A stretch of 6,054 nucleotides of DNA. Source: a virus. Taxonomy: Duplodnaviria > Heunggongvirae > Uroviricota > Caudoviricetes. Under the pieces are notes generated by a model. The model ran no database searches. It was not told the DNA's origin and saw only the letters and a program-made list of their open reading frames with translations. The stretch covers positions 1 to 6,054 of the IMG/VR virus record IMGVR_UViG_2724679236_000018. One strand, given 5' to 3'. The position numbers were made by a program, and so were the translations under genes. This document shows positions 1 through 6,054 of the stretch, one piece after another. How positions within the stretch are numbered: the stretch's first letter is position 1; the number at the start of each line of letters is the position of its first letter.

Positions 1-1284
1 TTACTTCTTCGCCTCTGCAACCACTTTGCTACCCACGCCGCGGTTGTTGTACTCCCACATGCGGTTGTAGTTAGTGTCATTCAGATTGCGCTGTACATCG
101 TCGCTATCATCAGCGTTTCCGGTATTACCCGCGAACGGACGATTAGAGATCACCGCATCAGCCCACGGTTTAGCTGTGTTAAAGCCTTCGTTAATGGCGC
201 TATCACGAATCACCACCTGGCCGTTGGTATTGGCATCAACATCCAGCGAGCGACCCAACTGCGCGACGCCATCACCAGAAGCATTAAATCGGCTATTTAC
301 TGCCAGGAAACCGTAATAGATATTAGACAGCGTAGCTGGTGCAAACACATACGCTTCCTGCTGGGTACGGGAGTTCACCACGCGGAATTCAGTATTATCG
401 AACACCACTGCGCCGCGACCAGAAACGATATCCACATCCCCTTCGATGTAGCTGTTAGTCACCAGCGTACGCGGTTGGCGGTTGGTTTCCAGACGGTTTT
501 GCACGCCACTGTTAGTCACAAAGAAAGTATTCTGACGACCCAGAATATTGACGTTATTGATCTGTACTTTATCGCCATCAGTACGCAGAGCTACCGCTGG
601 ATGGTTGCCTGCATCTACGCTATCGCCCAGCGTGTTTTCGATGGTCAGATTTTGCAGTTGCAGGCCATTGTTTTGCGACCAGAAGACCGCAGAACACAGA
701 ACGCCGATACTGTTGCTGCGTTTGCTCTGGCAGCTATCGTACATATACCACGCTGGTTTACCTGGCATATATTTGCCGCGCGGGTTGACGTCATGACGCC
801 AGTCGGCAGGGCTCATGCCGCCATCAAGGGAGAGTCCAATCTTCACATCAATCGGTTTTTCGCCTGTACCATAGACGGTGATTCCACCCGGAGCTGCAGG
901 GACATACACCGTTCCCTGATACTCACCAGGCATCACGGCAATATACTGGCGCTTATTGGTACGCTTGATAATTGCCGCATCTACCGCCGCCTGAATCGTG
1001 GTATGCGTTACGCCTGGAGTACCCGCCGGGCCGACAACAAAGTCAGGTTGTGCAGGCAGGGTAATCGGCGAAGGATTCCACGCCGCAGCACCAGGCGTCA
1101 GGGATGAAAAATAGTGTTGAGCATCGAAATTCTGCGCTTCTTTTGCCGACAGAATCGGGCGAGAAGAAGTACCAGGCGCGGTTTGATCAGAAGGACGTTG
1201 ATCGGGCGGTGTTGAGCTACAGGCGGTCAGCGTCACGCCAAAAGCCAGTGCCAGCGCCAGACGGGAAACTGAAAATGTGTTCAC
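1..1284 (-). CDS. ybhC: YbhC-like outer-membrane lipoprotein (pectinesterase-like / putative acyl-CoA thioesterase family); host gene flanking the prophage
   Basis: Complete 427-aa ORF on the minus strand with stop at 1-3. N-terminus MNTFSVSRLALALAFGVTLTAC is a lipoprotein signal peptide with lipobox LTAC. Body contains pectinesterase-like motifs (HPAVALRTDGDKV, GDVDIVSG). Lying directly beside the lambda attB core matches my recollection of E. coli ybhC. Confidence 0.85.
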   Translation of the reverse strand: MNTFSVSRLALALAFGVTLTACSSTPPDQRPSDQTAPGTSSRPILSAKEAQNFDAQHYFSSLTPGAAAWNPSPITLPAQPDFVVGPAGTPGVTHTTIQAAVDAAIIKRTNKRQYIAVMPGEYQGTVYVPAAPGGITVYGTGEKPIDVKIGLSLDGGMSPADWRHDVNPRGKYMPGKPAWYMYDSCQSKRSNSIGVLCSAVFWSQNNGLQLQNLTIENTLGDSVDAGNHPAVALRTDGDKVQINNVNILGRQNTFFVTNSGVQNRLETNRQPRTLVTNSYIEGDVDIVSGRGAVVFDNTEFRVVNSRTQQEAYVFAPATLSNIYYGFLAVNSRFNASGDGVAQLGRSLDVDANTNGQVVIRDSAINEGFNTAKPWADAVISNRPFAGNTGNADDSDDVQRNLNDTNYNRMWEYNNRGVGSKVVAEAKK

Positions 1285-1315
1285 AGGTTGCTCCGGGCTA
1301 TGAAATGTAAAAATG

Positions 1316-1421
1316 AATCCGTTGAAGCCTGCTTTTTTATACTAAGTTGGCCTTATAAAAAAGCATTACTTATCAATTTGTTGCAACGAACAGGTCACTA
1401 TCAGTCAAAATAAAATCATTA
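1316..1421. other. Prophage attachment site attL (B-O-P'): host B arm, 15-bp lambda common core GCTTTTTTATACTAA at 1331-1345, phage P' arm
   Basis: Exact lambda core GCTTTTTTATACTAA at 1331-1345. Left flank TGAAGCCTG matches the attB B arm and right flank GTTGG...TATAAAAAAGCATT matches the attP P' arm as I recall them. An IHF-like site TATCAATTTGTTG (1371-1383, WATCAANNNNTTR) and three tandem arm-type Int sites (AGGTCACTAT, CAGTCAAAAT, AAATCATTAT, 1392-1421) follow, running into the int stop codon. Confidence 0.9.
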
Positions 1422-2486
1422 TTTGATTTCAATTTTGTCCCACTCCCTGCCTCTGTCATCACGATACTGTGATGCCATGGTGTCCGACTTATGCCCGAGA
1501 AGATGTTGAGCAAACTTATCGCTTATCTGCTTCTCATAGAGTCTTGCAGACAAACTGCGCAACTCGTGAAAGGTAGGCGGAGTCCCTTCGAAGGAAAGAC
1601 CTGATGCTTTTCGTGCGCGCATAAAATACCTTGATACTGTGCCGGATGAAAGCGGTTCACGACGAGTAGATGCAATTATGGTTTCTCCGCCAAGAATCTC
1701 TTTGCATTTATCAAGTGTTTCTTTCATTGATATCCCGAGAGCATCAACATGCAATGTTGTAGGAATGGCAATTTTTACGCCTGTTTTGCTTTGCTCGACA
1801 TAAAGATAGCCATCTACGATATCAGACCACTTCATTTCGCATAAATCACCAACTCGCTGCCCGGTAACAACAGCCAGTTCCATTGCAAGTCTGAGCCAAC
1901 ATGGTGATGATTCTGCTGCTTGATAAATTTTCAGGTATTCGTCAGCCGTAAGTCTTGATCTCCTTACCTCTGATTTTGCTGCGCGAGTGGCGGTGACCGG
2001 GTTTGTCGTTATATGGCCTTCAGCTATAGCCTCTCGGAATGCATCGCTCAGTGTCGATCTGATTAACTTGGCTGATGCCGCCTTACCCTCGTCTATGTAT
2101 CCATTGAGCATTGTCGCAATTTCTTTTGTGGTGATGTCTTCAAGTGGAACATCAGGTAACTCCTTCCTTATTGCTTTAATTTTGCTCATGTAATTTATTA
2201 ATGTCTTCTGCTTGATCCCTCTGCTGGAGAGGATTTTTTCGTAGCGATCAAGCCAAGCATGGAGAGTGATTGAATCAGCGCCTTTAATCCTGCCCAGCAA
2301 TGATTCGTGCCCGCTTTCGGTGAAAAGCTCAATGTTGGTGTGAATTGCTTCGGAAATTGCTACCCTCCTGTCTCTTCCCAGCCCGAACTCTTTTTTCGTC
2401 CTCGGGTCTCTGTAGCAGTAATACCCGTTTCTTTCGTAGAGATTTGGCGGCAGGTCGCGCCGCTTATGGCTTCTCCTTCTTCCCAT
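1419..2486 (-). CDS. int: Lambda-type integrase (tyrosine site-specific recombinase Int)
   Basis: 355-aa ORF beginning MGRRRSHKRRDLPPNLYERNGYYCYRDPRTKKEFGLGRD and ending ...GREWDKIEIK, which matches lambda Int as I recall it. It sits next to attL and overlaps xis by 23 bp as in lambda. Confidence 0.96.
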   Translation of the reverse strand: MGRRRSHKRRDLPPNLYERNGYYCYRDPRTKKEFGLGRDRRVAISEAIHTNIELFTESGHESLLGRIKGADSITLHAWLDRYEKILSSRGIKQKTLINYMSKIKAIRKELPDVPLEDITTKEIATMLNGYIDEGKAASAKLIRSTLSDAFREAIAEGHITTNPVTATRAAKSEVRRSRLTADEYLKIYQAAESSPCWLRLAMELAVVTGQRVGDLCEMKWSDIVDGYLYVEQSKTGVKIAIPTTLHVDALGISMKETLDKCKEILGGETIIASTRREPLSSGTVSRYFMRARKASGLSFEGTPPTFHELRSLSARLYEKQISDKFAQHLLGHKSDTMASQYRDDRGREWDKIEIK

Positions 2487-2682
2487 TTCTGATCCTCTTC
2501 AAAAGACTACCTGTTACTGGTCGATTTAAGTCAACCTTTACCGCTGATTCGTGGAACAGATACTCTCTTCCATCCTTAACCGGAGGAGGGAATATCCTGC
2601 ACTCGCGTACCCATCGACGAACTGTTTCAAGGCTTCTTGGGCGTCGCTGGCGTGCGTTCCACTCCTGAAGTGTCAAGTACAT
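2464..2682 (-). CDS. xis: Lambda-type excisionase Xis
   Basis: 72-aa ORF MYLTLQEWNARQRRPRSLETVRRWVRECRIFPPPVKDGREYLFHESAVKVDLNRP..., which matches lambda Xis as I recall it. Its 3' end overlaps the int start in the classic arrangement. Confidence 0.95.
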   Translation of the reverse strand: MYLTLQEWNARQRRPRSLETVRRWVRECRIFPPPVKDGREYLFHESAVKVDLNRPVTGSLLKRIRNGKKEKP

Positions 2683-2738
2683 CGCAAAGTCTCCGCAATT
2701 ACTCGCAAGGGAACGAGTAGTGGTTGATTTTCTCCAAC

Positions 2739-2761
2739 AAAAAAGGAGCCGAAGCTCCTTT
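2739..2761 (-). terminator. Candidate rho-independent terminator downstream of the AntA-like gene and upstream of xis
   Basis: On the minus strand: GGAGC-TTCG-GCTCC (5-bp GC-rich stem, 4-nt loop) followed directly by TTTTTTGTTGG. The plus-strand version has only TTT after the stem. It lies 6 bp beyond the stop codon (2767-2769) of the AntA-like gene. Confidence 0.6.
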
Positions 2762-2766
2762 GATGA

Positions 2767-3390
2767 TTAAAATTCGAATTGTCTCGCCCGAAGGCTTTTC
2801 AACATTGGTCTTGCCCGTTCGAAAACGGCGCTTGTCTGGTCAAGTCGTGTCGCCTCCCTGAGCAGTACATCTCTGTTTTTTGTCACCGTGTAAAAAGTTT
2901 CAAACGCGATGTCATACAGCTTGCTCGCGTATGATGAGTTAAGTTCCTTCATTATCGGGTACAGGCGTTTGCAGGTATCCACTGCTTTTTCCATCTGTAC
3001 CAGCATGTAGCAGAGGAGGATGATTTCCTCGTCTGTGAATTGTTGTAGTGGCTGCATATTGCGATACTTCTTCTCGCATTCGATGAAGTATCGACGTATC
3101 TGGCGGCCTTTTTCGTTGCGCTCAACCATCGCCAGTTCTTTGGCTGTGTCGAGGGTGAGGTGGTAATCCTTGCGGTTGTGACCGCCTCTACCAGAGGTTT
3201 GCTTTCCCAAATTGGAAAGCAAAATATAGTCTTGATTTTCAATGAATTCGTATTCTGAAATGCGATTTGTAATCCATGCCGCAAACACCTTTTTCACGCC
3301 TAAAAAAGCATGCAGATCACGGGCATTACAGAGCAGGGTGGTTTCGTTGGCAATAGTGCCGTTGAATACGGGGATGAGTTGACTGGTCAT
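2767..3390 (-). CDS. Phage antirepressor-like protein with N-terminal AntA-type domain and uncharacterised C-terminal half
   Basis: ORF 2767..3402; I place the start at the second in-frame ATG (3388-3390, MTSQLIPVF...) because GGAGG sits 5 nt upstream of it, while the first ATG (3400-3402) has no SD. The N-terminal ~110 aa carry the motif set I associate with the AntA/AntB antirepressor domain (ARDLHAFLGV, WITNRISEYEFIENQDY, GGHNRKDYHLTLDTAKELAMVERNEKGRQIRRYFIECEKK). The C-terminal ~100 aa have no motif I recognise. Confidence 0.8.
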   Translation of the reverse strand: MTSQLIPVFNGTIANETTLLCNARDLHAFLGVKKVFAAWITNRISEYEFIENQDYILLSNLGKQTSGRGGHNRKDYHLTLDTAKELAMVERNEKGRQIRRYFIECEKKYRNMQPLQQFTDEEIILLCYMLVQMEKAVDTCKRLYPIMKELNSSYASKLYDIAFETFYTVTKNRDVLLREATRLDQTSAVFERARPMLKSLRARQFEF

Positions 3391-3418
3391 GATGACCTCC
3401 ATAGATTTTTAGTTAGCA

Positions 3419-3441
3419 ATCACCAGTTAGTGGCTGGTGAT
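3419..3441. promoter_or_regulatory. Perfect 8-bp inverted repeat ATCACCAG-N7-CTGGTGAT in the leader of the AntA-like gene; candidate operator or leader RNA hairpin
   Basis: Arms 3419-3426 and 3434-3441 are exact reverse complements. The element lies between a TTGACA hexamer (minus strand, plus-strand coordinates 3446-3451) and the RBS of the AntA-like gene (3393-3397). Confidence 0.35.
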
Positions 3442-3609
3442 CGGGTGTCAACTAGAGCATCTATGAAGCTCCGGGCATATTCCCCTTGCAGGTGTTGTAT
3501 TACGCCTCTCCACCCGACCTTTGTACGGATGTGACTATGCCAGATTGCAGGCATAAAAAAGCCGCAAAGCTATCGGGTGCGGAGACCGCATAGATTTTCT
3601 AGTGCGGTC

Positions 3610-3639
3610 AGTATGCGATAGCTCGAGCGGATTTGTCAA
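3610..3639 (-). promoter_or_regulatory. Candidate sigma70-type promoter (TTGACA-18 bp-CATACT) reading towards the AntA-like gene
   Basis: Minus-strand TTGACA (plus coordinates 3634-3639), 18-bp spacer, CATACT (3610-3615). This is hexamer matching only, with a weak -10 element. Confidence 0.2.
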
Positions 3640-3742
3640 ATCATGTGGTCTTTATCTTGCTGTAAGCCGCGCCATTCGGGCTTTTCCCCAGATTTGGGGG
3701 AAACTATCTGCGAAGTATTCACCTTTAACGGCTAGTTGCAGG

Positions 3743-4027
3743 TTAGCCACGACCTTCCTCCTTTGGCTTGTGAATTTGTATCGTCATGCCGCTTTGAGTG
3801 GTGACTACAATGACAGAACCAGGCTGAAGGCTGTTAAGATTGAATGCTTCGTAAAACGAATCCAATGCCAGTGCTTTTTTATTCTTTCGGTTCCACCAAC
3901 GCCATCCCTTGCTACAGGCTACACTGACAATCCACTGCCCACTCCTGTAAGCCATATAAAACCAGATGAGCAAAACCTGAAGGAAGGCTATCCAGTCAAT
4001 AATCGTATATTTAGCGAAGGAGTCCAT
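3743..4027 (-). CDS. Small predicted membrane protein (94 aa), translationally coupled to the upstream DUF551-like gene
   Basis: Start ATG at 4025-4027 overlaps the TAA stop of the upstream gene (TAATG on the minus strand) and is preceded by GGAGG 7 nt upstream. The longer 119-aa ORF in the track is an upstream extension with no RBS. The protein MDSFAKYTIIDWIAFLQVLLIWFYMAYRSGQW... has one clear hydrophobic helix (about residues 7-27) followed by a basic cluster NRKNKK, suggesting a cytoplasmic C-terminal domain. Confidence 0.65.
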   Translation of the reverse strand: MDSFAKYTIIDWIAFLQVLLIWFYMAYRSGQWIVSVACSKGWRWWNRKNKKALALDSFYEAFNLNSLQPGSVIVVTTQSGMTIQIHKPKEEGRG

Positions 4028-4449
4028 TACTTCACCTCCAGCGGTGGTTCCGGTAGCGGCATCCAGTGTGATGGTATCCACGACGCACCAGGAATTATCC
4101 ACCCATCATTAGCGTCAGGATGCCCAGGGATGTAAGTCGCCCATTTCATTCGCCAGTCACCTCTCCTGTCAAACTCCCTGGCAACAAGAACGGCTGTTTT
4201 GCTATCCGGCATTCGCTCACTACAGCTTATCCAACCATCCGGAATTACCGGAGAGTTGCCAGCCAGCGCGTTCAACTTGTAAGTTTGGCTTACAGGTTCT
4301 GCACTATCAGCTTCTCGCCGCTTCTGTAGCTCTGCTGCCATCGCTCTCACGACTTCAACTGGTGCCCTTGCAGCAAACTCCATGTTGGTGATCAGCTCAT
4401 TAAGATATTGCTCGCTGGGATACTGTTTCTTATTGGTAATGGTGGTCAT
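4027..4449 (-). CDS. Phage protein with C-terminal DUF551-like domain (140 aa)
   Basis: ORF with AAGGA 8 nt upstream of the ATG at 4447-4449. The C-terminal half (DGWISCSERMPDSKTAVLV...WATYIPG...ASWIPSHWMPLPEPP) resembles the conserved motif of DUF551-family prophage proteins as I remember it. The N-terminal ~70 aa are unassigned. Confidence 0.75.
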   Translation of the reverse strand: MTTITNKKQYPSEQYLNELITNMEFAARAPVEVVRAMAAELQKRREADSAEPVSQTYKLNALAGNSPVIPDGWISCSERMPDSKTAVLVAREFDRRGDWRMKWATYIPGHPDANDGWIIPGASWIPSHWMPLPEPPLEVK

Positions 4450-4453
4450 ATCA

Positions 4454-4639
4454 CTATCCTTTAGTGCGCAAGTGGTTTTTCCAGCGGTTTTGCGCCGCGC
4501 TGGGCTTGTTAAGTGAACACATCACAATATCAGCCGTATTTTTGAACAGCCCCATTCTGCGGTTACTGAGTTTTAACCATTGCTGGACGCCGCGAGCATT
4601 TCTACAGGTCAAAAGAATTTTTGCTTTACGGTTTTTCAT
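4454..4639 (-). CDS. Small basic hypothetical protein (61 aa, ORF A), start inside a duplicated boundary cassette
   Basis: ATG at 4637-4639 overlaps the TGA stop of ORF B (ATGA). Its stop at 4454-4456 is 4 nt from the start of the DUF551-like gene. The protein begins MKNRKAKILL..., sharing its first 7 residues with ORF B because of the direct repeat. No family recognised and the SD is weak, so coding status is uncertain. Confidence 0.4.
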   Translation of the reverse strand: MKNRKAKILLTCRNARGVQQWLKLSNRRMGLFKNTADIVMCSLNKPSAAQNRWKNHLRTKG

Positions 4640-4641
4640 CG
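4611..4641. repeat. Direct repeat copy 1 (23-bp exact core TTTTGCTTTACGGTTTTTCATCG at 4619-4641 plus AAAAGAA flank)
   Basis: Identical 23-mer recurs at 4792-4814, 173 bp away, each time with an AAAAGAA flank. On the minus strand it reads CGATGAAAAACCGTAAAGCAAAA and carries a start codon and the first codons of a small ORF. Confidence 0.85.
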
Positions 4642-4812
4642 CACTGCGTACCCCTTCTCTCGTCTGTTACGCGACGCGGTGGTTTTATAGTTAAATGCGA
4701 ATACCACCCTACCAAACATGCCGATCACCGCCCGTTTGTGATTGCTGATTGGTAGCTTCTCGTACCCCGTCGAACGCGATAAAAGAAGTAATTTTGCTTT
4801 ACGGTTTTTCAT
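4636..4812 (-). CDS. Small basic hypothetical protein (58 aa, ORF B), start inside a duplicated boundary cassette
   Basis: Internal ATG at 4810-4812 of the 72-aa track ORF, preceded by AGGAG about 9 nt upstream. It overlaps the last 14 nt of the Ea22-like gene and its TGA stop overlaps the ATG of ORF A. Begins [10 protein letters not shown]...; no family recognised. Confidence 0.4.
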   Translation of the reverse strand: MKNRKAKLLLLSRSTGYEKLPISNHKRAVIGMFGRVVFAFNYKTTASRNRREKGYAVR

Positions 4813-4814
4813 CG
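4781..4814. repeat. Direct repeat copy 2 (23-bp exact core at 4792-4814 plus AAAAGAA flank)
   Basis: Same 23-mer as 4619-4641. Here it spans the TAA stop of the Ea22-like gene (4799-4801) and the ATG of ORF B (4810-4812). Confidence 0.85.
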
Positions 4815-5449
4815 TTTTGCTCTCCTGCGTCTCCTTTGATGCGAATGCCAGCAAGCCAGTTTCTTATGCCGATATATTCAGCGTTCCTGAAACCGCTTTT
4901 TACATATATAAATGGCAAGCGAAGATTGTGACCATTGGCTGCCAGGTAGTTTTTACAACCCTGTTCGGTGAAACTGCAGGTAACGAATTCATCAATATCT
5001 TTCACAGCAACGCGCCGCCATTTTTCTGGTGGCTCTCGAAAGTTTTCGTGAAGTAGTTCGAGACGACGACTTTGGCGTTTATTGGCTTCATTGCCATCTT
5101 CATCAACCCAGACAATCCTGTCATAGTCATAATCAGAATCAACAACGATTTCGCGCTTTTGATACACACAAAACATAGGTTCTGACGTTATTCGATTATC
5201 CTGTGTTCGAATATTTTCACCGATGATGCCAAATGAATCTGGTGCAGATTTTGTCTGCAACTCTGCTATGCGCTTACTCCCATCCGAGATAACACCTTCG
5301 TAATATTCACGCTGCTCGTTGAGTTTTGATTCAAGTTCACCGAACTTACGGACAAGATATTCAGCGTTTGTTTCGTTAACCTTTAAATCTCGGGGGATGT
5401 ATTTACCTTTCAGAAATCCATCCATCTCAATTAGTGTCATTTGTTTCAT
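4799..5449 (-). CDS. ea22: Ea22-like early-left protein (mosaic; conserved central segment, divergent N- and C-termini)
   Basis: The central peptide [25 protein letters not shown] and the C-terminal AGIRIKG match lambda Ea22 segments as I recall them ([34 protein letters not shown]). The track ORF starts at a GTG (5465-5467) with no SD; I prefer the ATG at 5447-5449 ([12 protein letters not shown]...), which has a purine-rich GGAGTGGGAAGAA upstream. The start is uncertain between these two. Confidence 0.75.
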
Positions 5450-5606
5450 TTCTTCCCACTCCGCCACATCGCATTCAGATATTTGTTTTGATTTACTGAA
5501 GGAAAAGAATTTCTCTTAAGCAATTCCTCTCTCGATGGCATTGGCTTTACGCGTTGGCGAATAATCATTTCTGCCGGAAGAATGCCGGGATTGTATGCAA
5601 GTCCTC

Positions 5607-5897
5607 TCATGATTTACTCTCCACGAACTGGTCAATAGCCATGCTAAGTGACACACCTAAAGTATCGATATGCTGCTGAATATCCTGTAGCGTCTGAGCC
5701 TGAGATAACAGGATTTCACGGTTGCATAACTCTTTAACCAGATGCTCAAACTTGCTGTAATAACCGATACGGCTTAGTGTTTCTTTCCCTGCATTCTCGC
5801 CTTCTTTGATAATTCCTCTTTCGCTAAGAATCAGGTCGTGTTTGGTTCCGGTAATAACGTATTTTCCGAGGTCGATGTTTAGCTTCATTGTTTTCAT
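5607..5897 (-). CDS. Hypothetical phage protein (96 aa)
   Basis: Within the 146-aa track ORF the ATG at 5895-5897 ([13 protein letters not shown]...) is the only candidate start with a good SD (GAGGA 7 nt upstream). The 5' extension of the track ORF starts at a TTG without an RBS and overlaps another open frame. No family recognised. Confidence 0.55.
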
Positions 5898-5907
5898 TGT
5901 TAATTCC

Positions 5908-6054
5908 TCAGTCATTACTGATAGCGCCATAGCGTGAGCGGTAATTACGCAGGCGCGGGTCAATTTCAGGGAAGTGGGTATATGTGGCTTTGCGGAATGG
6001 TCGGATTGATGTCTGGTAAATTCGCTCGCGTTCTTCTTTCTCTGCAAGCCATAT
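5908..6054 (-). CDS. 3' end of a hypothetical gene whose start lies beyond the window (partial)
   Basis: A minus-strand frame is open from the window edge to a TGA at 5908-5910, giving ...IWLAEKEERERIYQTSIRPFRKATYTHFPEIDPRLRNYRSRYGAISND. The TGA abuts the SD of the next gene (TGAGGAATTAACAATG), a typical coupled arrangement. Not in the ORF track because it is truncated; no family recognised. Confidence 0.4.
   Translation of the reverse strand: MWLAEKEERERIYQTSIRPFRKATYTHFPEIDPRLRNYRSRYGAISND

Follow-up and report, generated by a model that had tools for sequence, protein, structure and literature searches.

The DUF551 gene and the DUF4752 gene of this prophage are probably two separate accessory genes that end a tightly packed delayed-early string, the DUF4752 gene being a self-contained cassette and the DUF551 gene a neighbor that shuffles independently of it. 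In a first-pass annotation made from the sequence, the two genes had been proposed to form a two-gene accessory module. Here, the window denotes the whole stretch of 6,054 nucleotides that was analyzed.

Based on the list of open reading frames (ORFs) as well as Pfam and PHROG profile searches, the minus strand is the coding strand for every gene from position 1 to 6054 (Table 1). The window is the left arm of a lambdoid prophage inserted beside ybhC. Because the 140-residue protein is a 100% match to an annotated Escherichia albertii protein (P0150), while ybhC is only ~93% identical to that of E. coli, the prophage host is probably E. albertii. As described in the first-pass annotation, the two genes are located in a variable accessory region between the Ead/Ea22-like gene and xis/int, and the string would comprise, in order, the Ead/Ea22-like gene, the two small basic phrog_1380 genes, the DUF551 gene, and the DUF4752 gene. 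Tight junctions are the normal packing across this early operon. Four of the eight same-strand junctions in the window overlap, including the one from xis to int, and one more has a gap of 4 nt, at which the Shine-Dalgarno (SD) sequence of the following gene spans the preceding stop codon. Taking M15, where the PHROG match begins, as the start of the first phrog_1380 copy (copy A), this copy and the Ea22-like gene overlap by 14 nt; copies A and B overlap through ATGA. In such an operon of a lambdoid phage, overlapping stop and start codons should not be taken as a sign that two genes form a functional pair.

TABLE 1 Coordinates of genes and sequence features in the window
Feature	Position	Strand	Details
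ybhC	1-1284	-	
Lambda-type integrase	1419-2486	-	
Excisionase	2464-2682	-	Pfam Exc, 136 bits
AntA/P22_AR_C antirepressor	2767-3402	-	
Conserved mosaic cassette, ~360 bp	3708-4067	-	DUF4752 gene, ~13 terminal codons of the preceding gene, and ~35 nt beyond the DUF4752 stop codon
DUF4752 gene, 94 aa	3743-4027	-	PF15944 and phrog_667; predicted bitopic (single-pass) inner-membrane protein
Basic juxtamembrane stretch	3875-3946	-	Residues 28-51 (RSGQWIVSVACSKGWRWWNRKNKK)
Predicted transmembrane helix	3947-4006	-	Residues 8-27 (TIIDWIAFLQVLLIWFYMAY)
TAATG stop/start overlap, 1 nt	4025-4029	-	TAA at 4029-4027, ATG at 4027-4025
Shine-Dalgarno sequence GGAGG of the DUF4752 gene	4035-4039	-	7 nt ahead of the ATG
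DUF551-domain gene, 140 aa	4027-4449	-	PF04448
DUF551 domain	4042-4236	-	Residues 72-136, PF04448
Two small basic paralogues, phrog_1380	4454-4639 and 4636-4854	-	
Ead/Ea22-like gene	4799-5467	-	Pfam 23.1 bits, under the 27-bit cutoff
DUF5405 gene	5607-6047	-	

The 94-residue protein had not been recognized in the first-pass annotation; it is a member of the Pfam family DUF4752 and of PHROG 667. PF15944 matches residues 8 to 91 at 123.9 bits over model positions 2 to 84 of 84, i.e., with full-model coverage and above the curated cutoff of 27 bits, and the match to phrog_667 has an E value of 6.6e-39. The protein is 97 to 100% identical to annotated proteins of Stx, P22-like, and HK/mEp phages and equal to them in length. 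It shares the hallmarks of the family, namely, a size of ~85 to 95 residues, an N-terminal hydrophobic helix, a basic cluster, a conserved A-x-x-x-FY-x-AF helix, and an (E/Q)PG hairpin; W22, W42, Y59, A61, and G70 are invariant in the family alignments. DUF4752 homologs form 565 clusters at 90% identity. Among 1.84 billion cluster representatives searched with an HMM, 73 were DUF4752 proteins (clusters at 50% identity); all 73 are stand-alone proteins of ≤145 residues, and neither fusions nor informative remote relatives were found. All named sources are Enterobacterales, and the carriers in the phage collection searched are temperate phages or prophages only. The family alignments start at the ATG, and a 119-residue ORF with a GTG start in the ORF list reflects only the open frame ahead of the true start. 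The gene is under purifying selection, with a dN/dS of ~0.10 across 57 nucleotide alleles and of 0.20 against a homolog with 66% identity. The plus strand carries a long ORF (177 residues, 3602 to 4135), of which the 94-residue ORF could be a shadow, or it could be a chance ORF; the strong Pfam match, the number of homolog clusters, both dN/dS values, and the conserved start context refute this reading for practical purposes, and its probability is close to nil.

The proposal that the 94-residue protein is a single-helix membrane protein probably holds. In the protein from the window, the 19-residue Kyte-Doolittle mean is 1.78 at residues 8 to 26, and the helix is conserved family-wide; the corresponding maximum ranges from 1.16 to 2.14 over the family and is borderline (1.2 to 1.4) in many members. 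Members have 0 to 1 basic residues ahead of the hydrophobic segment and 6 to 10 in the 25 residues after it (family means for lysine plus arginine, 0.2 versus 8.6). Because this basic stretch follows the helix, the positive-inside rule predicts a cytoplasmic location for the C-terminal ~65 residues and a periplasmic one for the N terminus, of 0 to 11 residues. DUF4752 is, as far as its sequence tells, probably a single-pass inner-membrane protein with the N terminus out and the C terminus in. An AlphaFold2 model based on a 45-sequence alignment has a long helix at residues 6 to 45 that packs against nothing, a short helix at residues 52 to 61, and a hairpin at residues 73 to 85; the overall pLDDT is low (62.5), with values of 86 to 87 over residues 11 to 30. 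The product would have nearly no periplasmic tail, and its conserved cytoplasmic ~65 residues would consist of the basic stretch, the short helix, and the beta-hairpin. A Foldseek search of the PDB with this model gave no match at E ≤ 0.001. In a search against the sequences of solved structures, WD40-repeat designs matched DUF4752 with an E value of 5.8e-5; we rejected them as a composition/repeat artifact, as no matched stretch passed alone. DUF4752 is a strongly conserved small predicted membrane protein of temperate enterobacterial phages.

In the 140-residue protein, the DUF551 domain is C-terminal (74.7 bits against PF04448, passing the curated cutoff of 22 bits) and is preceded by a mosaic N-terminal segment, residues 1 to 60, matching phrog_6847. 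The ends of the domain are conserved (PDGWISCSERMP ... HWMPLPEPP; also given as WISCSERMP ... HWMPLPEPP), and its core is variable, with at least 12 core types among 66 genes located upstream of DUF4752. A structure prediction for the window protein reached a pLDDT of only 41.8, and a search with this protein against the sequences of solved structures returned noise only (calmodulin, E ≥ 0.14). DUF551 has been described as a portable domain that is fused to diverse N-terminal parts (PMC10834534; PMC4776307), including in variants of Ea22 (PMC10834534). A housekeeping phage function would have spoken against the accessory role proposed in the first-pass annotation; none is assigned to either protein.

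The junction between the two genes is exactly as had been noted, with the 140- and 94-codon genes joined by TAATG and a GGAGG inside the end of the upstream gene, where it falls in the codons for the final residues (..LEVK*). This stop/start overlap with an SD sequence inside the upstream ORF is the layout of a coupled pair. To follow the junction in related loci, we used a close subclade, namely, 80 viral contigs whose DUF4752 proteins are 96 to 100% identical to that of the window; 79 of these loci enter the junction counts. A 1-nt overlap of the form TAATG or TGATG is present in 78 of these 79 loci, and because it is kept in this manner, the DUF551/DUF4752 overlap is not due to chance. The same number of loci (78/79) combine the 1-nt overlap with an upstream protein ending in ...QE(V/M/A)(K/N)*, and the SD sequence is kept as GCAGGAGGTGAAGTGATG across the 79 loci irrespective of the upstream gene. 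The SD sequence of the DUF4752 gene is strong and correctly spaced. We found no sequestration of this sequence or of the start codon in mRNA structure, as the junction RNA does not fold more stably than shuffled sequence (minimum free energy of −23.7 kcal/mol versus a shuffle mean of −26.8 kcal/mol; z = +0.82). Because the SD sequence is both strong and not sequestered, neither a fixed expression ratio nor dependence on upstream translation is forced, and the coexpression at a fixed ratio read from this arrangement in the first-pass annotation does not follow from it. Ribosomes could initiate anew at the DUF4752 SD sequence or restart after ending at the overlapping stop codon. A TAATG is also shared by yfdS, which encodes a DUF551 protein, and yfdT in E. 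coli K-12; we considered YfdT as a DUF4752 relative and rejected it based on an hhalign probability of 0.4% and the lack of a Pfam match.

Comparison of the 80 loci delimits the conserved unit. Ungapped identity is 0.76 to 0.99 inside the block listed in Table 1 and 0.2 to 0.35, i.e., random, outside of it, and the edges are sharp, at approximately −40 (~40 nt upstream) and +320 relative to the DUF4752 ATG. A sharp drop in identity at both edges next to unrelated flanks is what defines a lambdoid mosaic module, and the DUF4752 cassette has these properties. The cassette is present in 564 of 5,426 complete E. coli genomes (~10%), in which the NCBI label is "DUF4752 family protein." By contrast with the uniform cassette, the genes upstream of DUF4752 encode 69 distinct proteins of 58 to 341 residues over 79 loci, and the N-terminal parts of these proteins are of many kinds. 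DUF551 is directly upstream in 67 of the 79 to 80 close-subclade loci; the domains concerned are typically ~40% identical to that of the window, and a few are 85 to 94% identical. In the large sets of loci, DUF551 was detected using an ad hoc HMM together with a sequence motif, with a Pfam check on representatives only, and its position relative to DUF4752 was counted from domain coordinates.

In 12 of the 79 loci, the upstream gene does not contain DUF551 and encodes a Lar-type restriction-alleviation protein (PF14354), a member of a 70- or 101-residue family, or a 106-residue protein with no Pfam match. The ...QEVK* ending, or a close variant of it, is common to all 12 of these genes, as is the GCAGGAGGTGAAGTGATG junction with the 1-nt overlap. 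Because the junction is unchanged behind genes without DUF551, the SD sequence and the upstream gene's final codons are part of the DUF4752 cassette and not of DUF551. Moreover, the DUF4752 proteins are 96 to 100% identical, whereas the adjacent DUF551 cores share ~40% identity and represent at least 12 types; therefore, the two do not covary. The DUF4752 gene is a self-contained mosaic cassette that begins, at its 5' edge, within the final codons of whichever gene precedes it; hence, it brings its own strong SD sequence and gives the upstream protein its ...QEVK* tail. This picture agrees with the published idea that short conserved boundaries allow phages to exchange mosaic modules (PMC3029335), and also with the described portability of DUF551 in Ea22 variants (PMC10834534). 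With its ribosome binding site placed at the end of the preceding gene, the portable DUF4752 cassette neatly illustrates such exchange.

Outside of the close subclade, the association of the two genes is largely lost. Both homologs at 63 to 66% identity, one in an Enterobacter soli prophage and the other in a metagenomic contig, follow genes for proteins of 379 and 282 residues, and DUF551 is upstream in 0/2; in the metagenomic contig, the locus is in the nin region, with replication genes on one side and ninB on the other. Six annotated phages encode a true DUF4752 protein (119 to 147 bits), i.e., Klebsiella phages VLCpiS13b and Chronis, Salmonella phage SPN1S, the P1-like phage D6, Hafnia phage yong1, and E. 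coli phage PhiR46_1. None of the six has DUF551 upstream; the genes in this position encode a ClpX-type zinc-finger protein, DUF4014, DUF977/LygF, and unknowns. We also examined 96 viral loci of a second, larger DUF4752 subfamily. In 80 of these, the DUF4752 gene overlaps the upstream ORF by 1 to 8 nt, and the upstream genes form 45 clusters, e.g., DUF977, lambda P, DUF4406, and DUF7446, with many Ead-like proteins having the C terminus ...AAQLRKGVQS*. DUF551 is directly upstream in 2 to 3 of the 96 loci, directly downstream in 7, and elsewhere within 2.5 kb in 32; a DUF551 gene is within 2.5 kb downstream in 39, indicating a loose neighborhood association. Thus, synteny between DUF551 and DUF4752, a check named in the first-pass annotation, holds in one near-identical subclade and fails in the distant relatives, and the low counts among the latter argue against a dedicated two-gene module: across divergent lineages of both families, the two genes are not kept as neighbors.

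DUF551 likewise occurs apart from DUF4752. Among phage records, 597 matched DUF551 and 72 matched DUF4752, an ~8-fold difference. DUF551 genes with the core found in the window (91 to 92% identical) are next to other genes in phage HK633 and in the Stx1 phage NC_004913, and the latter has a DUF4752 gene of the other subfamily behind a TraR/DksA-like gene, with a GTGA overlap. A scan of genome contigs returned five loci only and added little.

Using a consensus scan, which is a crude measure, we found no sigma-70-like promoter on the coding strand between positions 3743 and 4700. Loci of the DUF4752 family are in the ea region (from pL toward xis/int) or in the nin region (from the replication genes to Q), and both regions of lambdoid phages are delayed-early and antitermination dependent. 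Because of these locations and the lack of a promoter-like site, DUF4752 would be expressed only from antiterminated early transcripts. We infer that lysogens do not make the protein and that its synthesis falls in early lytic growth or follows induction; such early-only expression would, therefore, fit poorly with prophage-expressed exclusion or toxin-antitoxin modules. Searches with PADLOC models at E ≤ 0.1 gave no match to the DUF551 and DUF4752 proteins or to their neighbors, and the NCBIfam models gave none to the same set of proteins, leaving the suggested fit to superinfection exclusion, abortive infection, or toxin-antitoxin modules without a counterpart in either collection. As to what DUF4752 does, we tentatively suggest, and with clearly less than even confidence, that it may be a cytoplasmic domain tethered to the membrane, which acts on a host machine associated with the inner membrane, either early in lytic growth or at the lysis-lysogeny decision, and not a prophage-expressed exclusion or toxin-antitoxin system.

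We considered whether DUF551 and DUF4752 could instead be a dedicated two-component system, translationally coupled at a fixed ratio, in which a soluble partner and a membrane effector function in exclusion, abortive infection, or a toxin-antitoxin-like role. The conserved stop/start overlap and the internal SD sequence point in this direction, but the same junction is found unchanged where the partner is swapped for Lar-like or unknown genes, and with the SD sequence not sequestered, coupling would not be obligatory. That DUF551 is upstream in so many of the close-subclade loci (67 of 79 to 80) despite heavy shuffling, which could reflect selection for the pairing, and that the DUF551-DUF4752 layout also appears in the annotations of Stx phage PA28 and of E. 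coli genomes, would be expected of a dedicated pair; against this, DUF551 is absent upstream in the homologs with 63 to 66% identity, in the six annotated phages, and in ~93 of the 96 loci of the other subfamily, and it is ~8 times more common than DUF4752 in phage records. The diverse cores beside nearly invariant DUF4752 proteins, i.e., the lack of covariation, the lack of a PADLOC or NCBIfam match, and the lack of an own promoter in the crude consensus scan also weigh against this proposal, which we consider unlikely. Altogether, the first-pass interpretation is partly supported by these data.

Alternatively, DUF4752 alone might be a prophage-expressed protective membrane protein that functions in superinfection exclusion or abortive infection, for which P22 SieA, lambda SieB, T4 Imm, and HK97 gp15 are the comparators. 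Its small size and predicted membrane location, its restriction to temperate Enterobacterales phages, and the spread of a highly conserved cassette among unrelated phage backbones would suit such a protein. However, the gene has no detectable promoter and is embedded in early operons (ea/nin) that are silent in lysogens, the protein lacks similarity to PADLOC defense models and to named families, and a periplasmic tail of 0 to 11 residues with the conserved part in the cytoplasm is a poor fit to a block of entry from outside, making a protective role improbable. Finally, the most common upstream genes in both DUF4752 subfamilies are hypervariable mosaics with a conserved tail. A constant DUF4752 membrane effector might, therefore, act together with whichever hypervariable protein is encoded upstream (DUF551 variants or Ead-like proteins ending in ...AAQLRKGVQS), the two being linked by the conserved tail or by cotranslational proximity. 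We regard this idea as very unlikely; if true, it would make the two a sensor/effector pair of a novel kind among phage early genes.

Under the reading that we favor, of two separate accessory genes, the DUF551 gene would be a hypervariable mosaic gene that shuffles independently of DUF4752. The adjacency of the two in one subclade then probably arose by recombination inside the conserved DUF551 ends and at the short conserved junction, and a mutual need of the two proteins for each other would not be the likely reason for it.

Both genes belong to catalogued families, and the layout of the pair is already annotated in Stx, P22-like, and HK/mEp phages. As a discovery, the arrangement matters little, as it is known from about 1 in 10 complete E. 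coli genomes and many phages. In the literature library that was searched, no paper on DUF4752 (PF15944, phrog_667, IPR031855) was found, and the work on the exo-xis region that we consulted, a modeling review included, neither models nor tests DUF4752.

T4 Imm, P22 SieA, HK97 gp15, and SPO1 gp56 are small phage membrane proteins that act on the host envelope. DUF4752 resembles proteins of this type in being the small product of a phage accessory gene, with one predicted transmembrane helix; it differs from them in having no sequence or profile similarity to them, almost no periplasmic part, and a conserved portion that is cytoplasmic. With the accessory genes of the lambda/Stx exo-xis region (orf60a, orf61, orf63, orf73, ea22, and ea8.5), DUF4752 has in common the genomic compartment and delayed-early transcription from pL. 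In contrast to DUF4752, which is a predicted membrane protein, the characterized exo-xis proteins are soluble, and unlike the exo-xis accessory genes, some DUF4752 genes are located in the nin region. The DUF551 domain of the window protein is common to the EaA-type proteins of P22 and Stx phages, the C-terminal domain of Ea22 variant V2, and YfdS of the K-12 element CPS-53; the window protein has a short N-terminal module of 60 residues (phrog_6847), whereas Ea22 has a coiled coil. The phage members of PF15944 and the window gene share their site in the ea region: an Ead/Ea22- or DUF551-type gene lies on one side and xis/int on the other. In Salmonella phage ST104, the annotated layout is ead/Ea22-like, DUF4752, ASCH, and xis, and in Stx phage PA28, it is DUF551, DUF4752, a gap, and Ant, as in the window. 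Compared with ST104 orf7, PA28 gp09, and the homologs in mEp213, mEp043, and HK106, the DUF4752 protein of the window is a plain member of its family and differs from them in nothing substantial.

The DUF551 gene adjoining the invariant DUF4752 gene is hypervariable. Among the 80 viral contigs encoding a DUF4752 protein 96-100% identical to that of the window, the upstream ORFs at 79 loci encode 69 distinct proteins; the DUF551 cores, of ~45 residues, fall into at least 12 unrelated-looking types, and the N-terminal extensions range from 44 to 280 residues. The ends of the DUF551 motif, PDGWISCSERMP ... HWMPLPEPP (window 4042-4236), are kept across loci. The pattern resembles a shuffling of cassettes between flanks that stay conserved; the DUF551 gene is possibly under diversifying selection as well.

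A short conserved stretch, translated ...LAFASKE(S/T)... and containing an AAGGAG Shine-Dalgarno sequence, is present at window 4812-4854 (-) and in many of the upstream ORFs of the 80 contigs. It lies immediately 5' of the ATG of differing genes, among them many DUF551 genes in other loci and, in the window, phrog_1380 copy A, and is a candidate for a further conserved boundary sequence for mosaic exchange. The two phrog_1380 copies, A and B, are tandem paralogues that both match phrog_1380 and overlap each other through ATGA; some phage records, such as those of HF4s and Dewey, label the homologue "RNA-binding protein".

Using Rfam, we identified a full-length match to sRNA-Xcc1 (RF02221; cut-off, 53 bits) within the 340-nt gap separating the DUF4752 gene from the antirepressor gene. 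The antirepressor ORF is listed with a start at ATG 3402 (-); based on its sequence, ATG 3390 is more likely the true start because of its context, GGAGGTCATCATG, and the observation that the PHROG match begins at residue 5 supports a later start (window 3390-3402 (-)). The RF02221 match ends 29-41 nt upstream of the antA start. In Stx phage PA28, the element precedes the Ant gene by 41 nt. It was not found in the 16 other loci searched. Purely by analogy with P1 c4/ant and P22 sar/ant, which its arrangement recalls, the element may regulate the antirepressor as a leader or small RNA.

Coordinates of features in the window and in compared loci
Feature	Location	Strand	Details
phrog_1380 copy B, very basic small protein gene	window 4454-4639	(-)	61 aa
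phrog_1380 copy A, very basic small protein gene	window 4636-4854	(-)	about 58 aa counted from internal ATG at 4812
sRNA-Xcc1 (RF02221) match	window 3431-3519	(-)	Rfam, 62.3 bits
Promoter-like site TTGACA-18-CATACT	window 3639..3610	(-)	upstream of RF02221 match
RF02221 element, Stx phage PA28	L191 4010-4099		65.4 bits
yfdS/yfdT, E. coli K-12 CPS-53	L195 9512-10179		TAATG overlap common to both genes
sok antitoxin RNA (RF01794), Stx1 phage NC_004913	L193 2263-2437		Rfam, 113.5 bits

The prophage integrase directly adjoins ybhC (window 1-2486), in the neighbourhood of the classical lambda attachment site. The ybhC of the window shares only about 93% identity with its E. coli counterpart, and an E. 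albertii entry matches the DUF551 protein exactly; from these sequence identities, it follows that the source is probably E. albertii.

DUF551 genes are also found in other settings. In NC_004913, the sok RNA overlaps a MokW/Gef-like gene and lies ~0.5 kb downstream of that phage's DUF551 gene; it has no relation to the DUF551/DUF4752 pair. E. coli K-12 yfdS, with a DUF551 score only just at the cut-off (22.2 bits), overlaps yfdT in the same manner as the window pair; YfdT is unrelated to DUF4752. Overexpression of yfdQRS or yfdQRT is reported to inhibit the initiation of chromosomal replication (PMC4776307), the sole clue to the function of any DUF551 protein that emerged in this analysis.
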